37,407 bases of DNA from Catajapyx aquilonaris. Lineage: Eukaryota. The position numbers and the translations under genes are program-made. Shown one piece after another: positions 1,855 to 35,140 of this stretch. Under the pieces are notes generated by a model. It was given only the letters and a program-made list of their open reading frames with translations, had not been told where the DNA came from and did no database searches. Where the stretch lies: NCBI GenBank assembly GCA_000934665.2, contig KZ539533.1:1-37407 (forward strand). Reading direction: 5' to 3'. The number at the start of each line of letters is the position of its first letter. Position 1 is the first letter of the stretch.

Positions 1855-2152
1855 CAGAGGAGAAGTCAGCAATGGCAATGAGATCGATCTTAGGCAAAGG
1901 ATATGCAATCTGGAAGTAGTCCTTGTAATACGGTAGCACCTTTGTGGCTACCTCCAGGGCGAACTGGCCCTGTTCCTTCTTCCCCACTGGAGTGTACACT
2001 CGCACTTTCACTCCATCTGCTGACTGGCTCTCCACATGGTCAAAATCACCTACTACCACTGCCACAAGGTAAGTGGACATGACAGGGGTACGATCAAACT
2101 GGACAAGCCGTAAATTTGGATCAGCTGAATCAGGGCTCTCACTTTTCACAGG
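1855..2152 (-). CDS. Psa: Puromycin-sensitive aminopeptidase exon (PVKSES...DFSSG); gene continues beyond the left edge
   Basis: M1 peptidase motifs RTPVMSTYLVA and YPLPKIDLIAIADFSSG immediately before the expected GAMEN; acceptor ttctccag, donor G|gtttgt; 298 nt, phase 0 to 1. Confidence 0.95.
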
Positions 2153-3427
2153 CTGGAGAATAAAAGGGGTGGTTCTCATAAGTCTCAGCAAAATAATAAA
2201 TCACAAGCAAGTTATGGGGGAGTAAGGGAGGATGATATTACTACAGTAAAAGTGCTGAATTACTTGAAGTATGCTACATTGGGCCAGCCAACCATAAGTC
2301 AGTATCTGTTTATCAGCTAAGAAAAAAATTGTCATGCATGCATGCACAAAATAAAGAACATCAGCAAGTGATCAATACTTTCCACAGGCCATAGTTCTTA
2401 GTTAGTAATGGCAATACTCTACTTTTCAACCAGGGGAGACAATAACAATACTTCAGTCCTCCTTGTAAACCAGGATTGATTTCTAAAAACAGTGGCAAAG
2501 CAAATAAGCTCTACAGTAAACATGTCTTTCCCCAACAATCCATTCTTCAGTACTTGAACCCTGTTCCTTGCTACATAACCGCTCATGGATGTCCCTGCAT
2601 TAGAATGATCAGTAATTGCCACATAACAAGCACCAATGGTGCTGCAACTGGCAGGTGTGAAAAAGCCTGACATCTCTGCACAGAAAGTTAGTATGAAGTG
2701 TTTTCCTTTGGAGGTGAATGACACAGTTGGGAAATCCCATGACACTCTCCAATGTCATTTCACTGCTTAAAAATTGTTGTCATTGCGTCTCACATTACTG
2801 GCTATAACAGTAGATTGTGAGCCGACTCAATCAGTCAGTAGCATTTACAAGTATAAATAGGGGTTACTTGCTAAGTACAGATGCAGAGTATATATCTGCA
2901 ATCTAAGCATAATTTTTGCTACATGAGTCACAGCAAATTTAATATCAGTGAATCTGATTTAAATACCAGGTAGCAAGAGTCCCAAATATTTATTATTTTT
3001 ATTATTGACAGGGAAGTTTCCTTCACTGAAATTCCCACACATCAGATGGAGAAAACGAATCAAAGTTTTCTAAAAAAAATTGTATTATAAAATTGAAATC
3101 CTTCCAATTAACAATTTGTTAACAGTTGACAAGATAAGTATTGCAATTAGACATGCACGGACTGACTGTAAACAGAGAGAGAGGGGGGGGGGGGGGGTGA
3201 AGTACCAAAATCAACATTTGTGGCCCTGCTTGCAATTCTAGTCGATTTCAAAATTATTCAATATTATGGCCCAAAACCAAACTTACATCAGGCAAAGTCT
3301 AGGTCTGGCAGCACTACAAACTACTGTATATCCTAGTGGAGAACTGTTCCCTCCCGCCTACATCCCAGGCAGTGGCAAATATTATCAGTTCAGTCTCAAA
3401 TTGTCCATCACTTTGAGCATTACTCAC

Positions 3428-3578
3428 CATGTTGGAGAGTGTGACTTTTTCTTTAGGCACAACAAGAGCAATGTCGAAGGTTGCCTTGATGGCTGGCTCA
3501 TCCCAACACGGGAAGCACCTCCTGGCATCGGTGGCCTCGAACTGGGTCACCCCAGCAAATTTCTCCTCGCCTTGGAGG
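3428..3578 (-). CDS. Psa: Psa alternative exon B (canonical): SLQGEEKFAGVTQFEATDARRCFPCWDEPAIKATFDIALVVPKEKVTLSNM
   Basis: 151 nt; acceptor gcatcag, donor ATG|gtgagt; phase 2 to 0 fits both flanking exons; canonical TQFE..ARR.FPCWDEP motif. Confidence 0.95.
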
Positions 3579-3666
3579 CTGATGCAGGCGGGACAGAAAG
3601 ACAGAGGGAGAGGGGAGGGAGGGAGAAACCCGAGTAAGACAGATGAGTACAGATCCAAAAACTCAC

Positions 3667-3817
3667 CATGTTGGACAGAGCCAACAGGTCCTGGGGCACC
3701 ACTACTGATAGAGTGAATGCAGCCCTTAGCGCAGGCTCATCCCAGCATGGGAAAAAGCGACGGGCACTTGTGGGGCAAAGCTGCGTCACAGCACAGTGAC
3801 GAAGCTCACCATTGGTG
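3667..3817 (-). CDS. Psa: Psa alternative exon A (variant duplicate): STNGELRHCAVTQLCPTSARRFFPCWDEPALRAAFTLSVVVPQDLLALSNM
   Basis: 151 nt, same length and phase as exon B, open frame; acceptor ttttgtag, donor ATG|gtgagt; aligns to exon B without gaps. Confidence 0.88.
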
Positions 3818-4864
3818 CTACAAAATCACAGTGATTGTCACTGTAACCTTCTAACTATCTTTAACACTCAGTAAAAATCACTCAATTCTTACCACATATA
3901 GTTTAGTTGTGACATGGATTACCTGAATACTTGACATGCAGTAATCAGTGAGTGTACTATCGCCTGAATAATACAACTTTTAAAAAACCTAGATATTCCC
4001 ATAGATTCCTTCCTAAATCACCATAAAACCTATGTGGGTAGCCATACCATGTCACATCTGAGTCATTTACAGATTACAAAGTAGGCCTACTATTATCAAT
4101 TCCCATTAGTGGAATGCAACTCTTGAAATATCCTTATCATGGGTCAAAAAATTGCAATGGTGAATTGAAGACACATTCATAAACAACACAAGTTATCCTG
4201 ATATGTATCCTTATAACAAGGGGCCATACTCATGTTCCATTCAAGCTGAAGCAGAGTACATTTGAAGTGTGAACACCCCAACTGTGACAAATGTAGGGCA
4301 GACTTTACCATTTTCCCTAAAAATTCCTTATTACTGGGGTCTGTTTGTTTCTAAAATGTTCGGTGATGAAACCGGTTCCCCCTGGACCTGTGCTACACAG
4401 CTTGTTTTTAGTCAATAGAAAACTTCTCTGGCATAACAAATTCCCACACCATGTTTTTCAGAATTGAGATCACAAGAAAATCAGTAAAAATTTAACAGAT
4501 GCTCGTCTCAGGCACTTCACTTTCAAATTTCATATACCAGTAGTCATATGTATAGGCTACCAATGGAAAGGCTTTTAAGTGGGCTTCCCAACAGTCTATG
4601 TAAATCACTTACACACTTGAAGGTGACATCACAGCAGAAAGCAGATATGAGTGTCCATGAGATTTTTACCAATACAAATGTGAGCTCAATTCTGATTACG
4701 CTGTATACTCCTTTGCACACTTATTTCTGTGCTTATGACTGTTTATCATGTTGCTTTCAAAGTAGTACAACTAAGGATATTATTCAAATACTTAACGGCT
4801 TGCATTTCTACAATACTCTGCCACTGCAATGAAGCAGCTGATAAACACAGTGTTAAACACCCAC

Positions 4865-5103
4865 CTGGTGTATTTGCTGCGATAAAATCCTTTCATCTTG
4901 TCATTGAGTTCTCCAGTAAACTCAATCCGGAGCTTTCCTGTTCCAGCAGGCAAATCAGATCCAAAGTTGAACTTGGCAGTCTCATTCTCAACAGAGAGGA
5001 TAACCTGTGGCTCATACTTCTTTCCATCTGCAGCCAAGTACTCTGCACTCTTGATCTTCAAGTCAAGAGCATTCAGCAATATGAAGCTTGTTGGTTCAGC
5101 AAT
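4865..5103 (-). CDS. Psa: Psa exon (IAEPTSFILLNALDL...KMKGFYRSKYTS)
   Basis: Acceptor atttcag, donor AG|gtgggt; 239 nt, phase 0 to 2; GELNDKMKGFYRSKY matches PSA. Confidence 0.95.
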
Positions 5104-5269
5104 CTGAAATTATAGTCCATTTAATTCTTCAATTCAAATATCCATTCCTGTTCACATAACAAGTCTGCCTAAAGTGTCAGAAACATAATGGTGGCATTGG
5201 GCTCATTAAGTTATTATGAATGATAAATGATCTTTACATTAAGAATTATCATAAAGATTCACACAATAC

Positions 5270-5577
5270 CTTAACTTCAATTTCTTCACTTCCATCGAAA
5301 ACAAACGTCTTAAGGTCAGGCTTAAGTTTAATTGTGTAATGTGTTGGCACCACATTCTTGGGCAAGCGCTCAAAAGGTATCTTCTTTGACTCAGGCATGG
5401 TCTCAAGCTTGGGAGTTGCTACTTGTGTTGAGAGTGGTGAACTTGGGACTATTACAAAGGGCCTGAGATTGAGTTTAACAGCATATGCTGCTGGACACAA
5501 GAATCTGGTTTTAATAGGTCGCAAACGTGATTTGGGAAGAAAGCTTGAAATGCGATGCAAATGCCTCAGAAGAGCCA
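5270..5577 (-). CDS. Psa: Psa N-terminal exon: basic extension followed by MPESKKIPFERLP (internal ATG at 5398)
   Basis: MPESKKIPFERLP resembles human NPEPPS MPEKRPFERLP; donor AAG|gtattg; pyrimidine tract and cag acceptor before 5577. Coding status of 5399-5577 is less certain. Confidence 0.88.
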
Positions 5578-7325: not shown

Positions 7326-7708
7326 TATGTAATTTAAGGAACAACTCCCTCCGACTTTGGTTTAAGGGTGTACAAATTGAATTCTCTTTGACTGAATCAT
7401 GTCATTTATGTAATTTGGATGTACCCTTTACTATACACCACTTACTGTTGGAGTGTAAGCAAACTTTTCATCTCAGGACGACGTACCTGAGTAACCTACT
7501 CCAAGTTCCTCCTGATAGGATGCACTGGATGTCTACCCATGTCACGAAAGACTCTGCTTTCTCCGTATCCCCCCCGGTATAGTGAAGATTTTGGACACGT
7601 GTGATTTGTGTTGATTTCTTTCATTATTGTGTCCCTGGTTATTATTAAATATATGTAGGTTGGGGCTGAGATCCCCCCTAAAGACCCACAAGGGTCACCA
7701 CATGGTAC

Positions 7709-7765
<57 letters not shown>

Positions 7766-7799
7766 TTATAATTATAATAATAATAATAATAATAATAAT
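7709..7799. repeat. (AAT)n microsatellite, probable LINE tail
   Basis: Directly visible, with a short ATT interruption. Confidence 0.95.
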
Positions 7800-9090
7800 C
7801 CCATCTAAAAGACATGCTGCATAGACATATCATAATATCAAGGTGACTTTACACCTTCCAGTTATTGTGTAACAAAGTGCAATAGCACCTTATCTGGAAG
7901 TAAAAAATGCTGATAAAAAAACACAAGATAAGTGCATGACCATGAACCAGACCAGTGGACATATCTGTTTAAAACATGGCACAACTAGAATAAACTTAAA
8001 CTCTGGTTAACCACTCATTACATTTCAGTCCCAGTGCAGAGGTGAGCTAAAATCTGCAACACAGGTATACATTCACATATATTTTGGTATTGAAAATATA
8101 TTGTTAATCCTGTTTTTTCAAAATAGCAAAATGCAGAAGTATTACTCAACTAAGTCAGCTGTGCCTGGCATGTGTCATGGAAGATGAAGGCGATGATAGC
8201 ATAGAAATACATGGTTAATAACAATCGTACATACAAGACTGAACAAAAGTTCTGTCACAGGCAAGTTTAAGCTGTATCCAGGTTTTACTGCAACTGATAA
8301 GCTCTGAGTAAGTAAATCTAATTCCCTACATTGCATAGTCAGCTATATGATTTGTGTTTTTAAGAAAATCTATTGACCCTATAAAAGTTGAATGTGATCC
8401 TGACAAAACCCAACCCATTCCATTGAGTGCATTTTGTCTTTGCGGCACATCACCTGCTATTAGTGTTGCAACAAGTTTACAAGCTAAAAATACCTCAATT
8501 TCGATACAAAATCTGCAGTGCCATGCCATGATGCTTAACTGGTATACTCTGCCACAGACGAGTGTGACTGACAACAGTGAGAGAGAGAAGAGCTGCTCTT
8601 GGTGTTTACCACTGGAGGAGACACCCACTCCAGGGCACTGCCGGCCGTCAGTATGTCAGTGGGTTGTGGCCTCAAGGGCTGGTGTTCCACAGTCCAGCTG
8701 GACAAGGCGGGCACGTCAGGGGCAGGGCAGGGTGGGAGAGGCACTGCACCGGAATGGAACCCCGTTCAGGGCAGCACCAGGCGGGTATGGAGGTTGATGA
8801 GGGGCGATAAGGGGGAGAGGGCAGCTGGCTGGGCTTGAAGAGAAGAAGAGCTGACCGTGTGGCTGTCTGGCTGGCTCGTGACTTGGAAGTTCCTCATTCC
8901 TCCCCAGCAGGCTTTGAATGATTTCAGGGACATCTAACGGCAAGAGGGGGCAAATAGCAGCACCTGCTCTCCCCCTTCCAAAGGGAGAGGGAGGGAGGTC
9001 CGAACGGAACAAACCGTGTCTGCCTGCATGCCTCGGATAACGGTACTCTCTCCCCCTCAGACCAGCCGGACATACAAGGACGCGCGCCCC

Positions 9091-27900: not shown

Positions 27901-28280
27901 GCAATAGAATACTTATCCGCATGCAGAACGTAGGACATGTTTGCCTGCTTGTACAGACCTACACCACGTTTCCTGAAAGTCTCTGCGAGATCCTCAGTCC
28001 AATTCCCAAGTTGGCCATAGTTACTGAACCTATCCTAATGACTAATGCATAAGGCATTTACCAGTAGGATGCACAAATACGAAGTTTCCTCTCGAAAAAG
28101 CACTGCCCCTCTTTCTTACTCTTTTGGCACAAAATGTATGTTAGGGGGTCATGCCATCATGGTCCTGTCGGACCTTTCTGTACCATACCGCAGACTTGGT
28201 GGCGTTGCGAGGCGGGGCAGGGGCATAAGTCGTAAAGAGCGGGGAGCAAGTGCGCCGCAGGCGAAATGGGGGGGGGGGGG

Positions 28281-28508
28281 NNNNNNNNNNNNNNNNNNNN
28301 NNNNNNNNNNNNNNNNNNNNNNNNNNNNNNNNNNNNNNNNNNNNNNNNNNNNNNNNNNNNNNNNNNNNNNNNNNNNNNNNNNNNNNNNNNNNNNNNNNNN
28401 NNNNNNNNNNNNNNNNNNNNNNNNNNNNNNNNNNNNNNNNNNNNNNNNNNNNNNNNNNNNNNNNNNNNNNNNNNNNNNNNNNNNNNNNNNNNNNNNNNNN
28501 NNNNNNNN

Positions 28509-28553
<45 letters not shown>
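28281..28553. repeat. Assembly gap (N, 28281-28508) between a poly-G run and a (GA)n microsatellite (28509-28553)
   Basis: Directly visible. Confidence 0.97.
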
Positions 28554-28555
<2 letters not shown>

Positions 28556-29215
28556 ACCTGCTCTGAAAAATGCACAGAAATGCCAAACTCCACAAAAGAG
28601 GGTCCCAGATTTCATTTCTGGCTATTGTTGAACCACGACTGCTGGTGAATATCCTGAAATCAGATATGACGTTTTTATCGAGCGAACTCTTTCTTCACCG
28701 CACAGTATTTTGCGTCTGAGATTGTAATGTTCGGGGACGAATTTGAAGACGTGCCAGTGTGGCTTGGTAATAGGTTTCCCACAAAAACAATTGAAACGTC
28801 AATATTGCACAGTGTCGGCCATTTTTCTTTCGACTTACGCCGGAAAGGAGTGGGGAGTGCCATAAATCTTTCAAATGTACAGGACTGGACAGGATACACT
28901 ATACTATAGATCGGGACACTCACGATTCTGTTGGTCCCAATACACCTGTCAAAAGTAGGTCAGTGGTACGGTATATTTTCGTTAGTATGGTATTGGACAA
29001 CATGGTATTATAACAGTAGCTCATATGAAACTATTTCTACACACTTTTGTGCCACAATTTGTGATAAAAGTGCAAAAAATGCATTTAGAATTTTCTAGTC
29101 TTATGCACATGTTAGTAATTGGTATTGACAGTTTTAGAAAGTGTTTTTCTCATCCTGGTTCTCAATACCGATGCCTAGTATAAGAAGATGTCCTGCTGAG
29201 TGATGTTGTTCCTAC

Positions 29216-29708
29216 CCTGATAACACTCCCTCCTCTCCTCTGACTGGAACTCCTGAATGGCAGTGACGAGTGCGACCCTCTCCTCCGGGGTCAGCCTGAG
29301 TATCAGGTCCTCCGCCTGAGACTTGTTCAGCGGGGGCTTCAGAGTGGGCTTGCCGCTCTCGGTGAACGTGTCCGTGTTCAGCATCCTCCTGCTGCCTCCT
29401 CCCGTCGAACAAGAGGATAAGGAAGGTGGTGAGTGGAACCCCGCCGCCGCCCAGCACCGGCAGAGTAGCGGGCTGCCCGTGGCCAGCTGTGGGCCGGCGT
29501 TGCGGGCAGACGCGGTAAAAGTCCTGGCCGAAACGGGCGCGCAAATGACGTCACTGGTCAAGTGTGTGCTTTTGCGGGGGAGGAGGGTCGTCGGGATGAG
29601 AACGGGCGATGGTGGTGGTGAGGAGACGTGGGAGATGGGCCTGGTGGTCAGGGGTCGGGTCAGGAGGTCGGCGAAGGTGCGGGCCAGGGAGGACAGCGAG
29701 CGTCGCAT
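29216..29708 (-). CDS. TMEM65: TMEM65 first coding exon with mitochondrial-type presequence (MRRSLSSLARTF...RECYQG)
   Basis: ATG at 29708; Arg/Ser/Thr/Leu-rich N-terminus; QAEDLILRLTPEERVALVTAIQEF matches the TMEM65 pre-TM helix; donor G|gtagga; 493 nt. Confidence 0.88.
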
Positions 29709-30298
29709 GGTCGACACTGCTGGGCGACGGTCGGTCGAAGGGGGGAATCAGCGCGTGTGTGCGTCGTCTGCAACCCACCACGTCCGCTTCGCTACTGGCG
29801 GACACGACAAGGCAACGAGGGCCGCCGGATAGGACCACTGCACGGCGCCTGCGTTCCACTCACTCCCTTCCTCCACTTTAACCCAGATGGTACTGGGATT
29901 CCTCAACAGACTGGTTTAGAACACCAGAAAATATACTTGGTGCGATAAATAATTAAGGTTTTCAGTGCGCGACCTTGGTATGGCGTAGGGTGCTTGGTAG
30001 GCTGCATGACGCGGGCTGTTTCGGATGCAGCCCAGGGCATTGTTTCATGAGCATTTTCTTCCTTCCATTCTGGCTCCGGTTTCCCTTGCTGTTGCTGGGC
30101 GTGTGGTGCATCGCAGGGAATTAGCTGAGGTGAGTTGAGGCCCATTGGTTGTAGTCTGATCCGCAGGTGGCATCCATTACAGTACCTGCAGTTCACATAT
30201 CATTTTTGACCAGCAGCAGTGTTGGTTTGCAAGGTGTCATCTTACACAGCTGGAACACTTAAAATGCGTATTGTTGCAGGTGAAAAGGGATTCTGAAC
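29709..30298. promoter_or_regulatory. Short divergent TMEM65/CSN5 promoter region with probable CSN5 5'-UTR intron (30130-30279)
   Basis: Start codons 590 bp apart, head-to-head; donor gag|gtgagt at 30130 and acceptor ttgttgcag at 30279. Confidence 0.7.
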
Positions 30299-30877
30299 AT
30301 GGCAGAATCCCAGGCTGAGATTGCGCAGAAGACGTGGGAGTTGGCCAACAATGTGGATGCTCTGGCTGGTTCGGCAGTGGACGAGATCTACCGATACGAC
30401 AAGAAGCAGCAGCAGGACATCCTGACGGCCAAACCATGGGACAAGGACCCACACTTTTTCAAGGACATTAGGATATCTGCATTGGCGCTTCTGAAGATGG
30501 TGATGCATGCCCGCTCAGGGGGCACCTTGGAAGTGATGGGCCTGCTTCTGGGCAAGGTGGATGCAAACACCATGATGGTGATGGACTCTTTTGCCCTACC
30601 TGTGGAGGGTACAGAAACCCGGGTCAATGCTCAGGCCCAGGCTTATGAGTACATGACTGCCTATATTGAGGCTGCAAAGCAGGTTGGGAGGCTGGAGAAT
30701 GCCATTGGGTGGTATCACAGTCACCCTGGGTATGGGTGTTGGCTCTCTGGGATTGACGTTTCCACCCAGATGCTAAACCAGAACTTTCAGGAGCCATTTG
30801 TGGCCATTGTCATTGATCCTGTTAGGACTATCTCTGCTGGGAAGGTCTGTTTGGGTGCATTCAGGACTTATCCAAAG
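30299..30877 (+). CDS. CSN5: COP9 signalosome subunit 5, coding exon 1 (MPN+/JAMM domain)
   Basis: JAMM motif [16 protein letters not shown] and [15 protein letters not shown]; donor AAG|gtatag. Confidence 0.98.
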
Positions 30878-31320
30878 GTATAGTATTGGTCCCAGAGTTG
30901 CCTACACCAGGTGGATCCTGGATCCATACAACTAAAACTAGTGCTAAAACTGCCCATATGCAGACCCCATTAGTGCGTAGTAACCTTCATGAGCAGGTAG
31001 TCAGGACGTTAAGGGACTAAACTGTGAATTTGGTGAGGCGAGCATGAAATTTGGTACAAATGTCCCTGAGACCATACGCTTCAAATTCGGATATGGCGCC
31101 ATGCCCGTTTCGGCCCCAGAGGCCCGTAATTGCAGGTTGGCTACATTGAAGTAATCTTTAAAACACATGCATGATATTAAAATTTGCAGGAATGTATTAG
31201 ATTTTGACATTCTACAGTACTCTGGAAATCTAAATGATGAAAAAATAACCCAGCATTCTGTACATTTGCCTCAAATCAAGGCCCTAACCTGGTGCTTTTG
31301 CATTGTCTTGTGTGGAACAG

Positions 31321-31518
31321 GGTTACAAACCTCCAAATGAGGAGCCCTCTGAGTACCAAACCATCCCCTTGAACAAGATTGAGGACTTTGGAGTACATTG
31401 CAAGCACTATTACTCCCTGGAGGTCACATACTTCAAGTCATCGCTGGACAGGCGCCTGCTCGACTCCCTGTGGAACAAGTACTGGGTCAACACACTCAGC
31501 TCCTCCAGTCTTCTCACT
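31321..31518 (+). CDS. CSN5: CSN5 coding exon 2
   Basis: [31 protein letters not shown]...[17 protein letters not shown]; cag acceptor, gtatgt donor; 198 nt. Confidence 0.97.
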
Positions 31519-31870
31519 GTATGTTTTCACCCCTTTACTTACTCTGGCAATGAGCATTGTGCTGTCATATTAGTCCAGCATCCATGCAGAGTGTCTAATG
31601 GTCCTGTGTGATGCAAGTCCTGCAGGATTTTTTTTAAACATTTGAGTCAAATCTTGTCGTAAATTCTACATTTGATGTTTCAATGGACTTATAGAACAAG
31701 TTGTCAAATAGTTGCCTTCCTCTACTCTAGATGTGTTGCTTCTAAAATTCATCCAAATTATCGGGACAGCTATCAGATAATAATTTGCACGTCAAAAACT
31801 ACTCAAAATTCACATACTTGGAAACTACGTCACCTATTTTGGTACTCACCAACCTGCGCCACTTTTCCAG

Positions 31871-32110
31871 AATGCTGAATACACCACTGGCCAAATATCA
31901 GATCTGTCAGACAAGCTTGAGCAGTCTGAGACTACCCTGGGCAGGGGAGCCTTCATGCTGGGGATGGACCCACATGAGAAGAAGGGGGAGGACAAGTTGT
32001 CCAAGGCCACCAAGGACAGTTGCAAGACCACCATGGAAGTCATCCACGGCCTCATGGCACAGATGATTAAGGATCGCCTCTTCAACCAGGTGCAGGCCAA
32101 GCTCAACTGA
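31871..32110 (+). CDS. CSN5: CSN5 coding exon 3
   Basis: [18 protein letters not shown]...[28 protein letters not shown]; acceptor ttttccag; TGA at 32108-32110. Confidence 0.97.
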
Positions 32111-33154: not shown

Positions 33155-33511
33155 TTAGGCCTGAATGTCTCCCTTCCCTTGGGCTGGTTGCTGCCCCTGG
33201 GCCAATACAACCTCTCCATCATCCTCTGGAGGCAGATTTACCACTGCTGAATATGGGGGTGGTAGTGATCCGGCAGCCATTTCATGCCCCCCCTCCATAA
33301 TAGCTGATGTCATGATCAGTGGCTTCTTAGCATACTGTGGGTCATTGATAGCTGTTTCATAGTCTGGGAGGTCGCAGGAGGCTAGCAGCTCATTGCGGCT
33401 CTCAGCTGAGCCACCCCCGGTTGGATCAATGAAATGGATTACGCCCTCAGAAGCGCGGTGGCACAAGCTCAGGTACTTGTAGCAGTTCCACACCACACCA
33501 ATGAAGTACGC
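33155..33511 (-). CDS. LAPTM4: LAPTM4-family protein, last coding exon
   Basis: AYFIGVVWNCYKY; PY-type motifs LPDY and LPPPY; acceptor ttttaaaag; TAA stop; 357 nt. Confidence 0.92.
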   Translation of the reverse strand, partial: AYFIGVVWNCYKYLSLCHRASEGVIHFIDPTGGGSAESRNELLASCDLPDYETAINDPQYAKKPLIMTSAIMEGGHEMAAGSLPPPYSAVVNLPPEDDGEVVLAQGQQPAQGKGDIQA

Positions 33512-33618
33512 CTTTTAAAAGAAACATTGGTCTCAGACAAACATGCTACGAAATAAGGTGCAAACCTCAATATTCAAATTGGTTAGAAAGGCTTCCGTAT
33601 ATATCTAATTACACTTAC

Positions 33619-33775
33619 CTTGACCATAATGGTGAGTATGAAGGTTAGCAAGATGAAAAGCCCAACCAGCTGTGGGTCCATCCTCAGAAGCTCCTGCTGC
33701 CAGGGGAGATTTGGGTTGGCTGCAATCAACTGATGCACATCAGGCAGATACGAGAAGTACCCAATCATCGTCAAG
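33619..33775 (-). CDS. LAPTM4: LAPTM4-family coding exon 4
   Basis: SLTMIGYFSYLPDV...LFILLTFILTIMVK; acceptor ttgacag, donor AAG|gtaagt; 157 nt, phase 2 to 0. Confidence 0.92.
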
Positions 33776-33845
33776 CTGTCAAGTATAAATCATTGTAGCA
33801 GTGCACATTCTAAGATGAGAAGAAAATAGGCTGAGCCATCCTAAC

Positions 33846-33984
33846 CTTGAAATGCAGAAGTCAAACACTTGCAAGCAGAAGAAGGGCATGAGGTAGGAAG
33901 GCTTCCCCTTGACGGCTCCATACACCATCAGCACGGTGATGGCAAAAGTGCAGAACGTCACTGCAATGCCCACGTTCAAATCCT
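33846..33984 (-). CDS. LAPTM4: LAPTM4-family coding exon 3
   Basis: Family motif LMVYGA...LMPFFCLQVFDF; acceptor ttgcag, donor AG|gttagg; 139 nt, phase 1 to 2. Confidence 0.93.
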
Positions 33985-34718
33985 CTGCAAACACCACAAC
34001 AATCAAATTCGCTAACAAATCCCACTTGCCCCAATACCCTCTGACTTTGCTATTTCAAGTCATGCTGCAGGCCTACTGTAGTGCATCATATAGAATTATA
34101 GATCACCCAAAATGACCTTGAATACCCATGTACATTATCCAGTCACTTACTTATTAACTCCATGCAGGACTTTCAGGTTCATGTGCTGCTAATCTTCCTT
34201 CACACATTTACCCCTAATCTCACAGCCATATAATCCAGAATTTCATATCCTCAAATTTAGTTGGTAAAGTAAATGTCTGCTTCTGAGCACAGTATTCATT
34301 CCAGACAAGGCACAAGAGTTTTTTATACTTTCTTGTTTGCAATTCAATTTCGTGATATCTGTTTTCTCGATATTTAATTTTCTTTCATGCACTAGAATCT
34401 TAGAAAGAATACTTCTTAAACCAAACCTGCACGTAGTGGATTCTTGTAAGGATCAGCCAAAGGGTCAGCCATTTTACAACAAATGGAGCACAGCTTCGTT
34501 CTAGGTCATACGATCATTCAACTGCCTCGAATGAACATGCAGACATTCACCAACATCAAAGCAACGGTATTATTATTCAAACAGATGGCATATTATTTCC
34601 ACACCTGCTGCTGAATGGCAGAACCTGGATTCTTACAAATACCTGCAGCATTAGCAACCTTCATGCAAGCCTTCTTGAAGCATTGGATACTGATCTAAGT
34701 TCCACAAGAAGTACATAC

Positions 34719-35058
34719 GGCAGTTAAGCCTGCGCTTAGCCAGCATGTCCCGGAACAAGTAGCTCTCCCCATCCAGCCTTCCAGTCCTTCCACCAGATGT
34801 TTTCCCACTGCTCTTCTCATCGCCATTTTCACCAGCGGAGAAGCTGAGCTCAAAGTCATTGCCTACTATCTCCAGCAGAGGCTCATCAACCTTGCTCAGT
34901 GGGGTGGGGAGCATCGGATTGTTACCACCATTGTTGGCATTCCCACCTGCTAGGTTGATCTCCCGGCCTGGCATGCCCAACTTATTTCGCTCCTTCTCAA
35001 GTACTTCTGGATGGAGGAGGATCACGGCTATGACCGAAAGGGCCAGAATGTGTAGAAC
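34719..35058 (-). CDS. LAPTM4: LAPTM4-family coding exon 2 (end of TM1 and long first luminal loop)
   Basis: VLHILALSVIAVILLHP...LPTPLS...RRLNC; acceptor ttttcag, donor C|gtatgt; 340 nt, phase 0 to 1. Confidence 0.9.
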
Positions 35059-35140
35059 CTGAAAAATAAACACCACCCGTTGATTGGTCATTTAGAAAAC
35101 CATTGCGCCAACATTCAATCTTTACACCAGTGCACTAGTG

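Follow-up and report, generated by a model that had tools for sequence, protein, structure and literature searches.

How two duplicated exons that lie side by side are kept from being spliced to each other is the question raised by the intron at positions 3579-3666 of the window, by which is meant the whole stretch of 37,407 nucleotides of Catajapyx aquilonaris DNA that was analysed. The gene that hosts this intron, on the minus strand, encodes a puromycin-sensitive aminopeptidase (PSA) of the M1 family. Two constitutive exons frame the region, an upstream one (4865-5103, minus strand) that ends in phase 2 and a downstream one (1855-2152, minus strand) whose best named single-copy relatives are orthopteran PSAs with 80% identity, and the gene carries on at G000:C1855, where the GAMEN and HEXXH(18)E zinc motifs are found. 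Between them lie exon A (3667-3817, minus strand) and exon B (3428-3578, minus strand), each of 151 nt. Exon A is an open frame with the TQLC variant, in which Cys stands where human PSA has Glu180; it scores 61.3 bits against PF17900 (cut-off 25.8) and has homologous isoforms in other species. Exon B has the canonical TQFE form. Both exons cover positions 111-159 of PF17900, are equal in length and phase, and share 85 of 151 nucleotides and 27 of 51 codon positions; being adjacent, homologous, of the same phase and of like length, they have the features of a duplicated pair. A genome search with exon A returned exons A and B together with three matches in other M1 genes, and a candidate third copy at 2640 was rejected, as the frame there has no M1 motif.

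In the first PSA exon seen (5269-5577, minus strand), the conserved Met is preceded by an open frame of about 60 codons that is rich in Arg, Lys and Ser. This N-terminal extension resembles the longer insect isoforms of 945-985 aa, and the Arg/Lys/Ser-rich stretch may be a targeting presequence.

Joining exon A to exon B (151+151 nt) would be out of frame, and a stop is reached inside exon B, which is the sequence pattern of exclusion by frameshift and nonsense-mediated decay (NMD). There is an internal CAG at 3542 (nucleotide 37 of exon B) that would bring exon A and the remainder of exon B in frame, and it is the equivalent of the junction used in one Timema gene model; NMD would hence not catch every possible double inclusion. 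A block of A-to-B joining at the level of splicing is more useful given this in-frame CAG, but the CAG is no demonstration that such a block exists.

The intron itself, read on the minus strand from 3666 to 3579, is an 88-nt GT-AG intron. The original prediction had listed its adenines, and the list is exact: they occur solely at +4, 13, 19, 23, 32, 84 and 87, with +23 at 3644 and +32 at 3635. It had also described an A-free, pyrimidine-rich middle of about 50 nt, which amounts to 51 nt at +33 to +83 (3584-3634, minus strand), made of 26 C, 18 T and 7 G. Apart from the AG of the donor and that of the 3' end, the intron has no AG dinucleotide, and the tract lies within an AG-exclusion zone of 81 nt. 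A branch adenine is reported to require at least 8 nt to the AG (PMC5378181), and the adenine at +84 is therefore too near to be usable. Two predicted branch points are left. The better-scoring one (6.5 on a rough hand-set matrix) is the adenine at +23, which leaves 66 nt to the 3' end; the last usable one (score 3.9) is that at +32, which leaves 57 nt.

The unusual character of this intron could be best judged against other introns of the same genome, inferred by homology from 104 of 159 exon matches to PSA, PEPCK, Cpn60/TCP1 and myosin head, with boundaries placed by frame continuity and a rough hand-set splice-site matrix. This gave 76 control introns; 8 were dropped as ambiguous, and 40 of the remaining 68 are at most 100 nt long, the shortest in the genome being 55-60 nt. 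The longest A-free run is 51 nt here, against a maximum of 24 and a median of 11 in the 68 controls. Likewise, adenines at -15 to -45 number 0 here and at least 3 in the controls, the AG-exclusion zone is 81 nt against at most 72, and the 3' part has 48% C against at most 29%. The combination of zero adenines in the usual branch-point zone, a long pyrimidine tract and a wide AG-exclusion zone is that of the steric class of introns, in which the branch point sits far from its acceptor. Both candidate adenines are less than 50 nt from the donor and below +36, the lowest value that any of the 40 short controls has for its last adenine with 15 nt or more to the 3' end, although +32 falls short of this floor by just 4 nt and the floor itself comes from inferred introns. 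The score of the +23 site is comparable with good control sites, as the best sites of the 40 short controls range from 1.7 to 7.4. The best-scoring motif stands at +32 or earlier in 5 of these 40 as well; hence, the signal is the absence of any later adenine and not the motif itself.

The tract also bears on whether splicing is blocked at all. Exons A and B might sometimes be joined through a non-A branch site, with the frameshifted product removed by NMD, in which case the tract would be a decayed CT/CCCT repeat. The out-of-frame sum with its stop within exon B is in keeping with this, as is the report that lengths not divisible by three are found in 60% of human mutually exclusive clusters (PMC5740500), and CT/GA repeats of 41-45 nt are present in the sampled genome DNA. 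However, the 51-nt run is the longest of the five A- or T-free runs of at least 40 nt in 160,827 bases (a gene-rich, non-random sample), it exactly fills the branch-point zone of the intron, and its 3' end has a matched partner arm in the downstream intron. The A-free tract is beyond chance, and an unblocked intron policed by NMD appears improbable.

The reading that we favour, and which is probable without being secure, is that exons A and B exclude each other in splicing, and that what mainly separates them is a distant branch point close to the exon A donor. Use of the exon B acceptor would require U2 at +23 or +32. At either position U2 would be too close for the exon A donor (GTGAGT, 3661-3666, minus strand) to take part in the same spliceosome, and only the donor of the upstream exon could attack; that donor would take the +23 or +32 branch point, with exon B included and exon A skipped. 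Skipping of exon A would probably be the default route, since its acceptor is weak and lies behind a hairpin. When exon A is chosen, an arm in the downstream intron would pair over the exon B acceptor and loop exon B out, so that exon A joins the next exon, and any A+B transcript that leaks through would be frameshifted and probably cleared by NMD. The outcome would be the normal enzyme in one case and, in the other, an enzyme whose equivalent of Glu180 is replaced by Cys.

The original prediction that A-to-B splicing is physically blocked thus fits the anatomy of the intron, the same-genome controls and the precedent of vertebrate OGDH, but the branch points are predicted ones and the margin at +32 is narrow. 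SF3B1 is described as touching nucleotides 13-15 upstream of the branch adenine (PMC8559932), and for the +23 site this contact zone would fall at +8 to +10. The same source reports one intron of wild-type flies in which branching occurs at a G at -16, and a non-A branch site at +53 to +70 would lift the block. Counting against the steric reading are the thin margin at +32, the homology-inferred controls, the non-A branching in flies, the CT/GA repeats, and the three Timema gene models (unreviewed predictions) that contain parts of both exons.

Two other possibilities at the splice sites were considered. U12-type introns have a donor consensus distinct from that of U2-type introns, and the donors of the upstream exon, exon A and exon B are GTGGGT, GTGAGT and GTGAGT, none of them U12-type, so that an incompatibility of U2 and U12 sites was rejected; the hexamers of A and B are identical. 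The second is a hairpin in which the ACUCAUC around the +23 site pairs back on the exon A donor, as had been proposed. The pairing is real as a local fold, but it is not special (z +1.47): donor folds are as stable in 15 of 76 controls, with the donor fully paired as well in 5 of 76, and the probability of pairing between +19 to +25 and the donor in longer windows is 0.03-0.27. The hairpin as a designed element was therefore rejected. A branch-point-like motif is, we infer, inherently part-complementary to a GTGAGT donor.

RNA structures at the two acceptors deserve more weight. At exon B, the 5' arm of a 13-bp stem (3581-3593, minus strand) covers the last bases before the acceptor AG, and its pairing with the 3' arm (3352-3364, minus strand) in the downstream intron would loop out exon B; the pairing can be extended to about 3607. 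The stem has -35.6 kcal/mol, a value reached by 0 of 300 shuffles, and the best of the 76 controls has -23.4. At exon A, a 13-bp hairpin (3822-3850, minus strand) ends 4 nt before the acceptor and covers the zone where the branch point and pyrimidines of that acceptor likely lie. Over its last 40 nt, the intron before exon A folds at -15.4 kcal/mol, with a hairpin probability of 0.96-0.97; none of the 76 control introns is as stable, the best having -9.9. Stable pairing over a splice site, beyond the shuffles or the controls, is thus found at both acceptors.

These structures could by themselves exclude one exon or the other: the stem would hide the exon B acceptor when exon A is used, and the hairpin, perhaps with an arm at 2629-2641, would hide the exon A acceptor otherwise, in the manner of human ATE1 exons 7a/7b. 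The C-rich tract would then be mainly a stem arm and the branch point's position incidental. Besides the stability of both structures, the report that disruption of the shared element in ATE1 leads to double-exon transcripts (PMC7797038) speaks for it. Yet no shared element with two mutually exclusive partners was found among the 13 pairings tested, nor was a shared competing element upstream of exon A, and pairing of the inter-exon intron with the upstream intron is not significant (176 of 300 shuffles). The B stem and the A hairpin can moreover coexist, the probability of the stem varies from 0.55 to 1.0 over four windows (it is in the minimum-energy structure in one of the four, and also in one further fold), its 3' arm is transcribed 216 nt later than its 5' arm, and the absence of adenine is not needed for pairing. 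The B stem does not explain the whole A-free tract, since some 26 nt of the tract (3634-3609) fall beyond the stem. Exclusion by RNA structure is therefore a possible but unlikely account, to which we give somewhat more room than to an unblocked intron. The 2629-2641 element (minus strand, downstream intron), which complements the exon A acceptor (3807-3819) perfectly over 13 nt, is itself doubtful: the pairing has -29.1 kcal/mol and is matched by 1 of 300 shuffles, which is borderline for one of 13 pairings tested, and the element is a near-palindrome with its own local hairpin. Under the preferred steric reading, the B stem, the A hairpin and the A+B frameshift, none of them part of the original prediction, can each contribute to exclusion.

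The weak, hairpin-covered acceptor could also mean that in C. aquilonaris exon A is a duplicate that has died or fallen silent, with the 88-nt intron a mere part of a long intron before exon B. All 13 assembly-derived (Logan/JGI) members that have the motif, from clusters including an A form, are of the B type (22 were examined, and 9 did not have the region), which lends this some support and suggests that A is the minor form. Nevertheless, exon A has an open frame, canonical sites and a Pfam score above the cut-off, and its Leu-Cys signature is the same as that of the A-type isoforms of other species. A silent exon A is consequently the least probable of the alternatives, and very improbable in itself.

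The question whether exons A/B are really ALTERNATIVES could be addressed with 320 PSA-like proteins that have the motif, among which 283 read FE, 22 LC, 4 FC and 8 otherwise, and three from Timema have two copies. Same-species isoform pairs, taken from database gene models, show differences confined to the exon A/B span in 14 of 14 insect and crustacean pairs (Anabrus, Schistocerca nitens, Periplaneta, Zootermopsis, Neocloeon, Gryllus, Bacillus, two Penaeus, Portunus, Eriocheir, Macrosteles, Oratosquilla and Diaphorina). The alternative form has Cys at the human Glu180 position in 13 of these pairs and Phe in Oratosquilla. In Diaphorina citri the two forms (P0356 and P0220) differ at just three residues, one of which is the Glu/Cys at the Glu180 position. 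Separately, the Planococcus citri protein P0208, annotated as 'isoform X1', reads FC. The Diaphorina and Planococcus forms suggest exon homogenisation or re-duplication, with the Cys kept or regained.

The Cys form is not present among the matches listed for Drosophila (15 of 51), Anopheles (15 of 29), Bombyx, Cydia, Daphnia and Orchesella, which does not prove its absence. A homolog search with exon A alone returned 22 generic M1 peptidases and no Leu-Cys form; the Leu-Cys forms surfaced only through the constant-exon search and the cluster listings. A metagenome scan for a related intron gave three loci. L006 proved to be an M1 peptidase that is unrelated and has no introns, and the searched motif did not show up in L007 or L008. 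A tree of the exons over 50 columns, with Ephemera left out, needs two changes and places the Oratosquilla copy among the B exons; from these columns, a single origin of exon A would be neither shown nor excluded.

The replaced residue lies at a place of some consequence. Exon B matches human PSA (PDB 8SW0) gap-free, and Gln178 and Glu180 fall in the exon B segment (bioRxiv 10.1101/2023.05.30.542994), whereas exon A has Cys at the Glu180 position. According to the same preprint, Glu180 and Glu319 likely bind the N-terminus of the substrate in human PSA, and Glu180 corresponds to the E183/E295/E121 column of other M1 enzymes (PMC6222927). A wider proposal can be put forward tentatively, as something rather doubtful. 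Insects and crustaceans may have retained, from their common ancestor onwards, a splicing switch from Glu180 to Cys. Its minor isoform would follow another N-terminal rule, for example by cutting N-blocked or pyroglutamyl peptides in the way of TRH-DE, or would serve as a regulator of low activity. A single compact element would lock the switch, the pyrimidine tract of the blocking branch point being at the same time an arm of the exon-looping stem. The likeness to TRH-DE at the Glu180 position is our assumption. The TRH-DE signature is described in a review as formed by two substitutions.

Exclusion by a distant branch point is an already known mechanism. Rat alpha-tropomyosin exons 2/3 reportedly have a longer intron, with a branch point about 40 nt from the donor and regulation by PTB. 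The proximity of donor and branch point is named as the exclusion device of that pair (PMC7969005, PMC5378181) and is predicted for the locus studied here as well. The closest precedent is vertebrate OGDH (PMC7969005), where the short intron between duplicated exons 4a/4b has a pyrimidine tract poor in adenine, where its branch points were mapped to +25 to +41, and where a triple mutant gave some double inclusion. The C. aquilonaris intron is alike in its donor-near branch points (predicted at +23 and +32), its long adenine-poor pyrimidine tract, its AG-exclusion zone, an exon sum that is not a multiple of three, and isoforms that alter an enzyme property. It differs in that the OGDH branch points were mapped and mutated and those here are predicted from sequence, in that the tract is C-rich (U-rich in OGDH) and can pair at its 3' end with a downstream arm, and in that this genome splices introns of 55-60 nt, so that the vertebrate threshold of 50 nt is not directly transferable. 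As predicted for this locus, pairings within the introns of human ATE1 7a/7b cover one acceptor or make the downstream exon loop out (PMC7797038), but its shared element with two competing partners was proven by compensatory mutation, and none was found here among 13 pairings. Drosophila Dscam exons 17.1/17.2, in a different gene, are described as having both a distant branch point and RNA structure (PMC7969005), and the combination is hence not new for insects.

Donor-proximal branch points are reported to account for about 9% of human mutually exclusive clusters (PMC5740500), and NPEPPS was not found in the 10 searched supplementary files of that survey. In the literature searched, mostly titles and abstract openings, with subscription journals and bioRxiv supplements outside it, no description of the PSA exon pair or of a Glu-to-Cys isoform was found. 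The worked donor-proximal cases found are mostly vertebrate, and the 88-nt intron offers a compact arthropod test case in which the steric block, the RNA stems and NMD are separable in one small minigene and the limit between donor and branch point is measurable in a species whose introns can be as short as 55 nt. Of larger interest is an active-site Glu-to-Cys isoform of a housekeeping peptidase, which the annotations of many insects and crustaceans call 'isoform X1/X2'.

Several other features of the window and the genome were observed. A JAB-domain gene (PF01398) lies at 30284-32110 on the plus strand and resembles, as we assume, COP9 signalosome subunit 5. Exon-like open frames on the minus strand at 29175-29747 and 33155-35091 gave no Pfam match in the three frames scanned, and presumably resemble TMEM65 and an LAPTM4-like membrane protein. 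At about 28280-28510 there is an N gap with poly-G and GA repeats on its flanks, and at about 7620-7800 a trinucleotide repeat of the AAT type. Elsewhere in the genome, at G000:C1488:14867-23293, myosin-head matches are repeated at the same model positions (1-32 twice, 84-122 twice and 378-435 twice), which we take to be as expected of the mutually exclusive exon clusters of muscle myosin, and the region is a source of further inter-exon introns for comparison.
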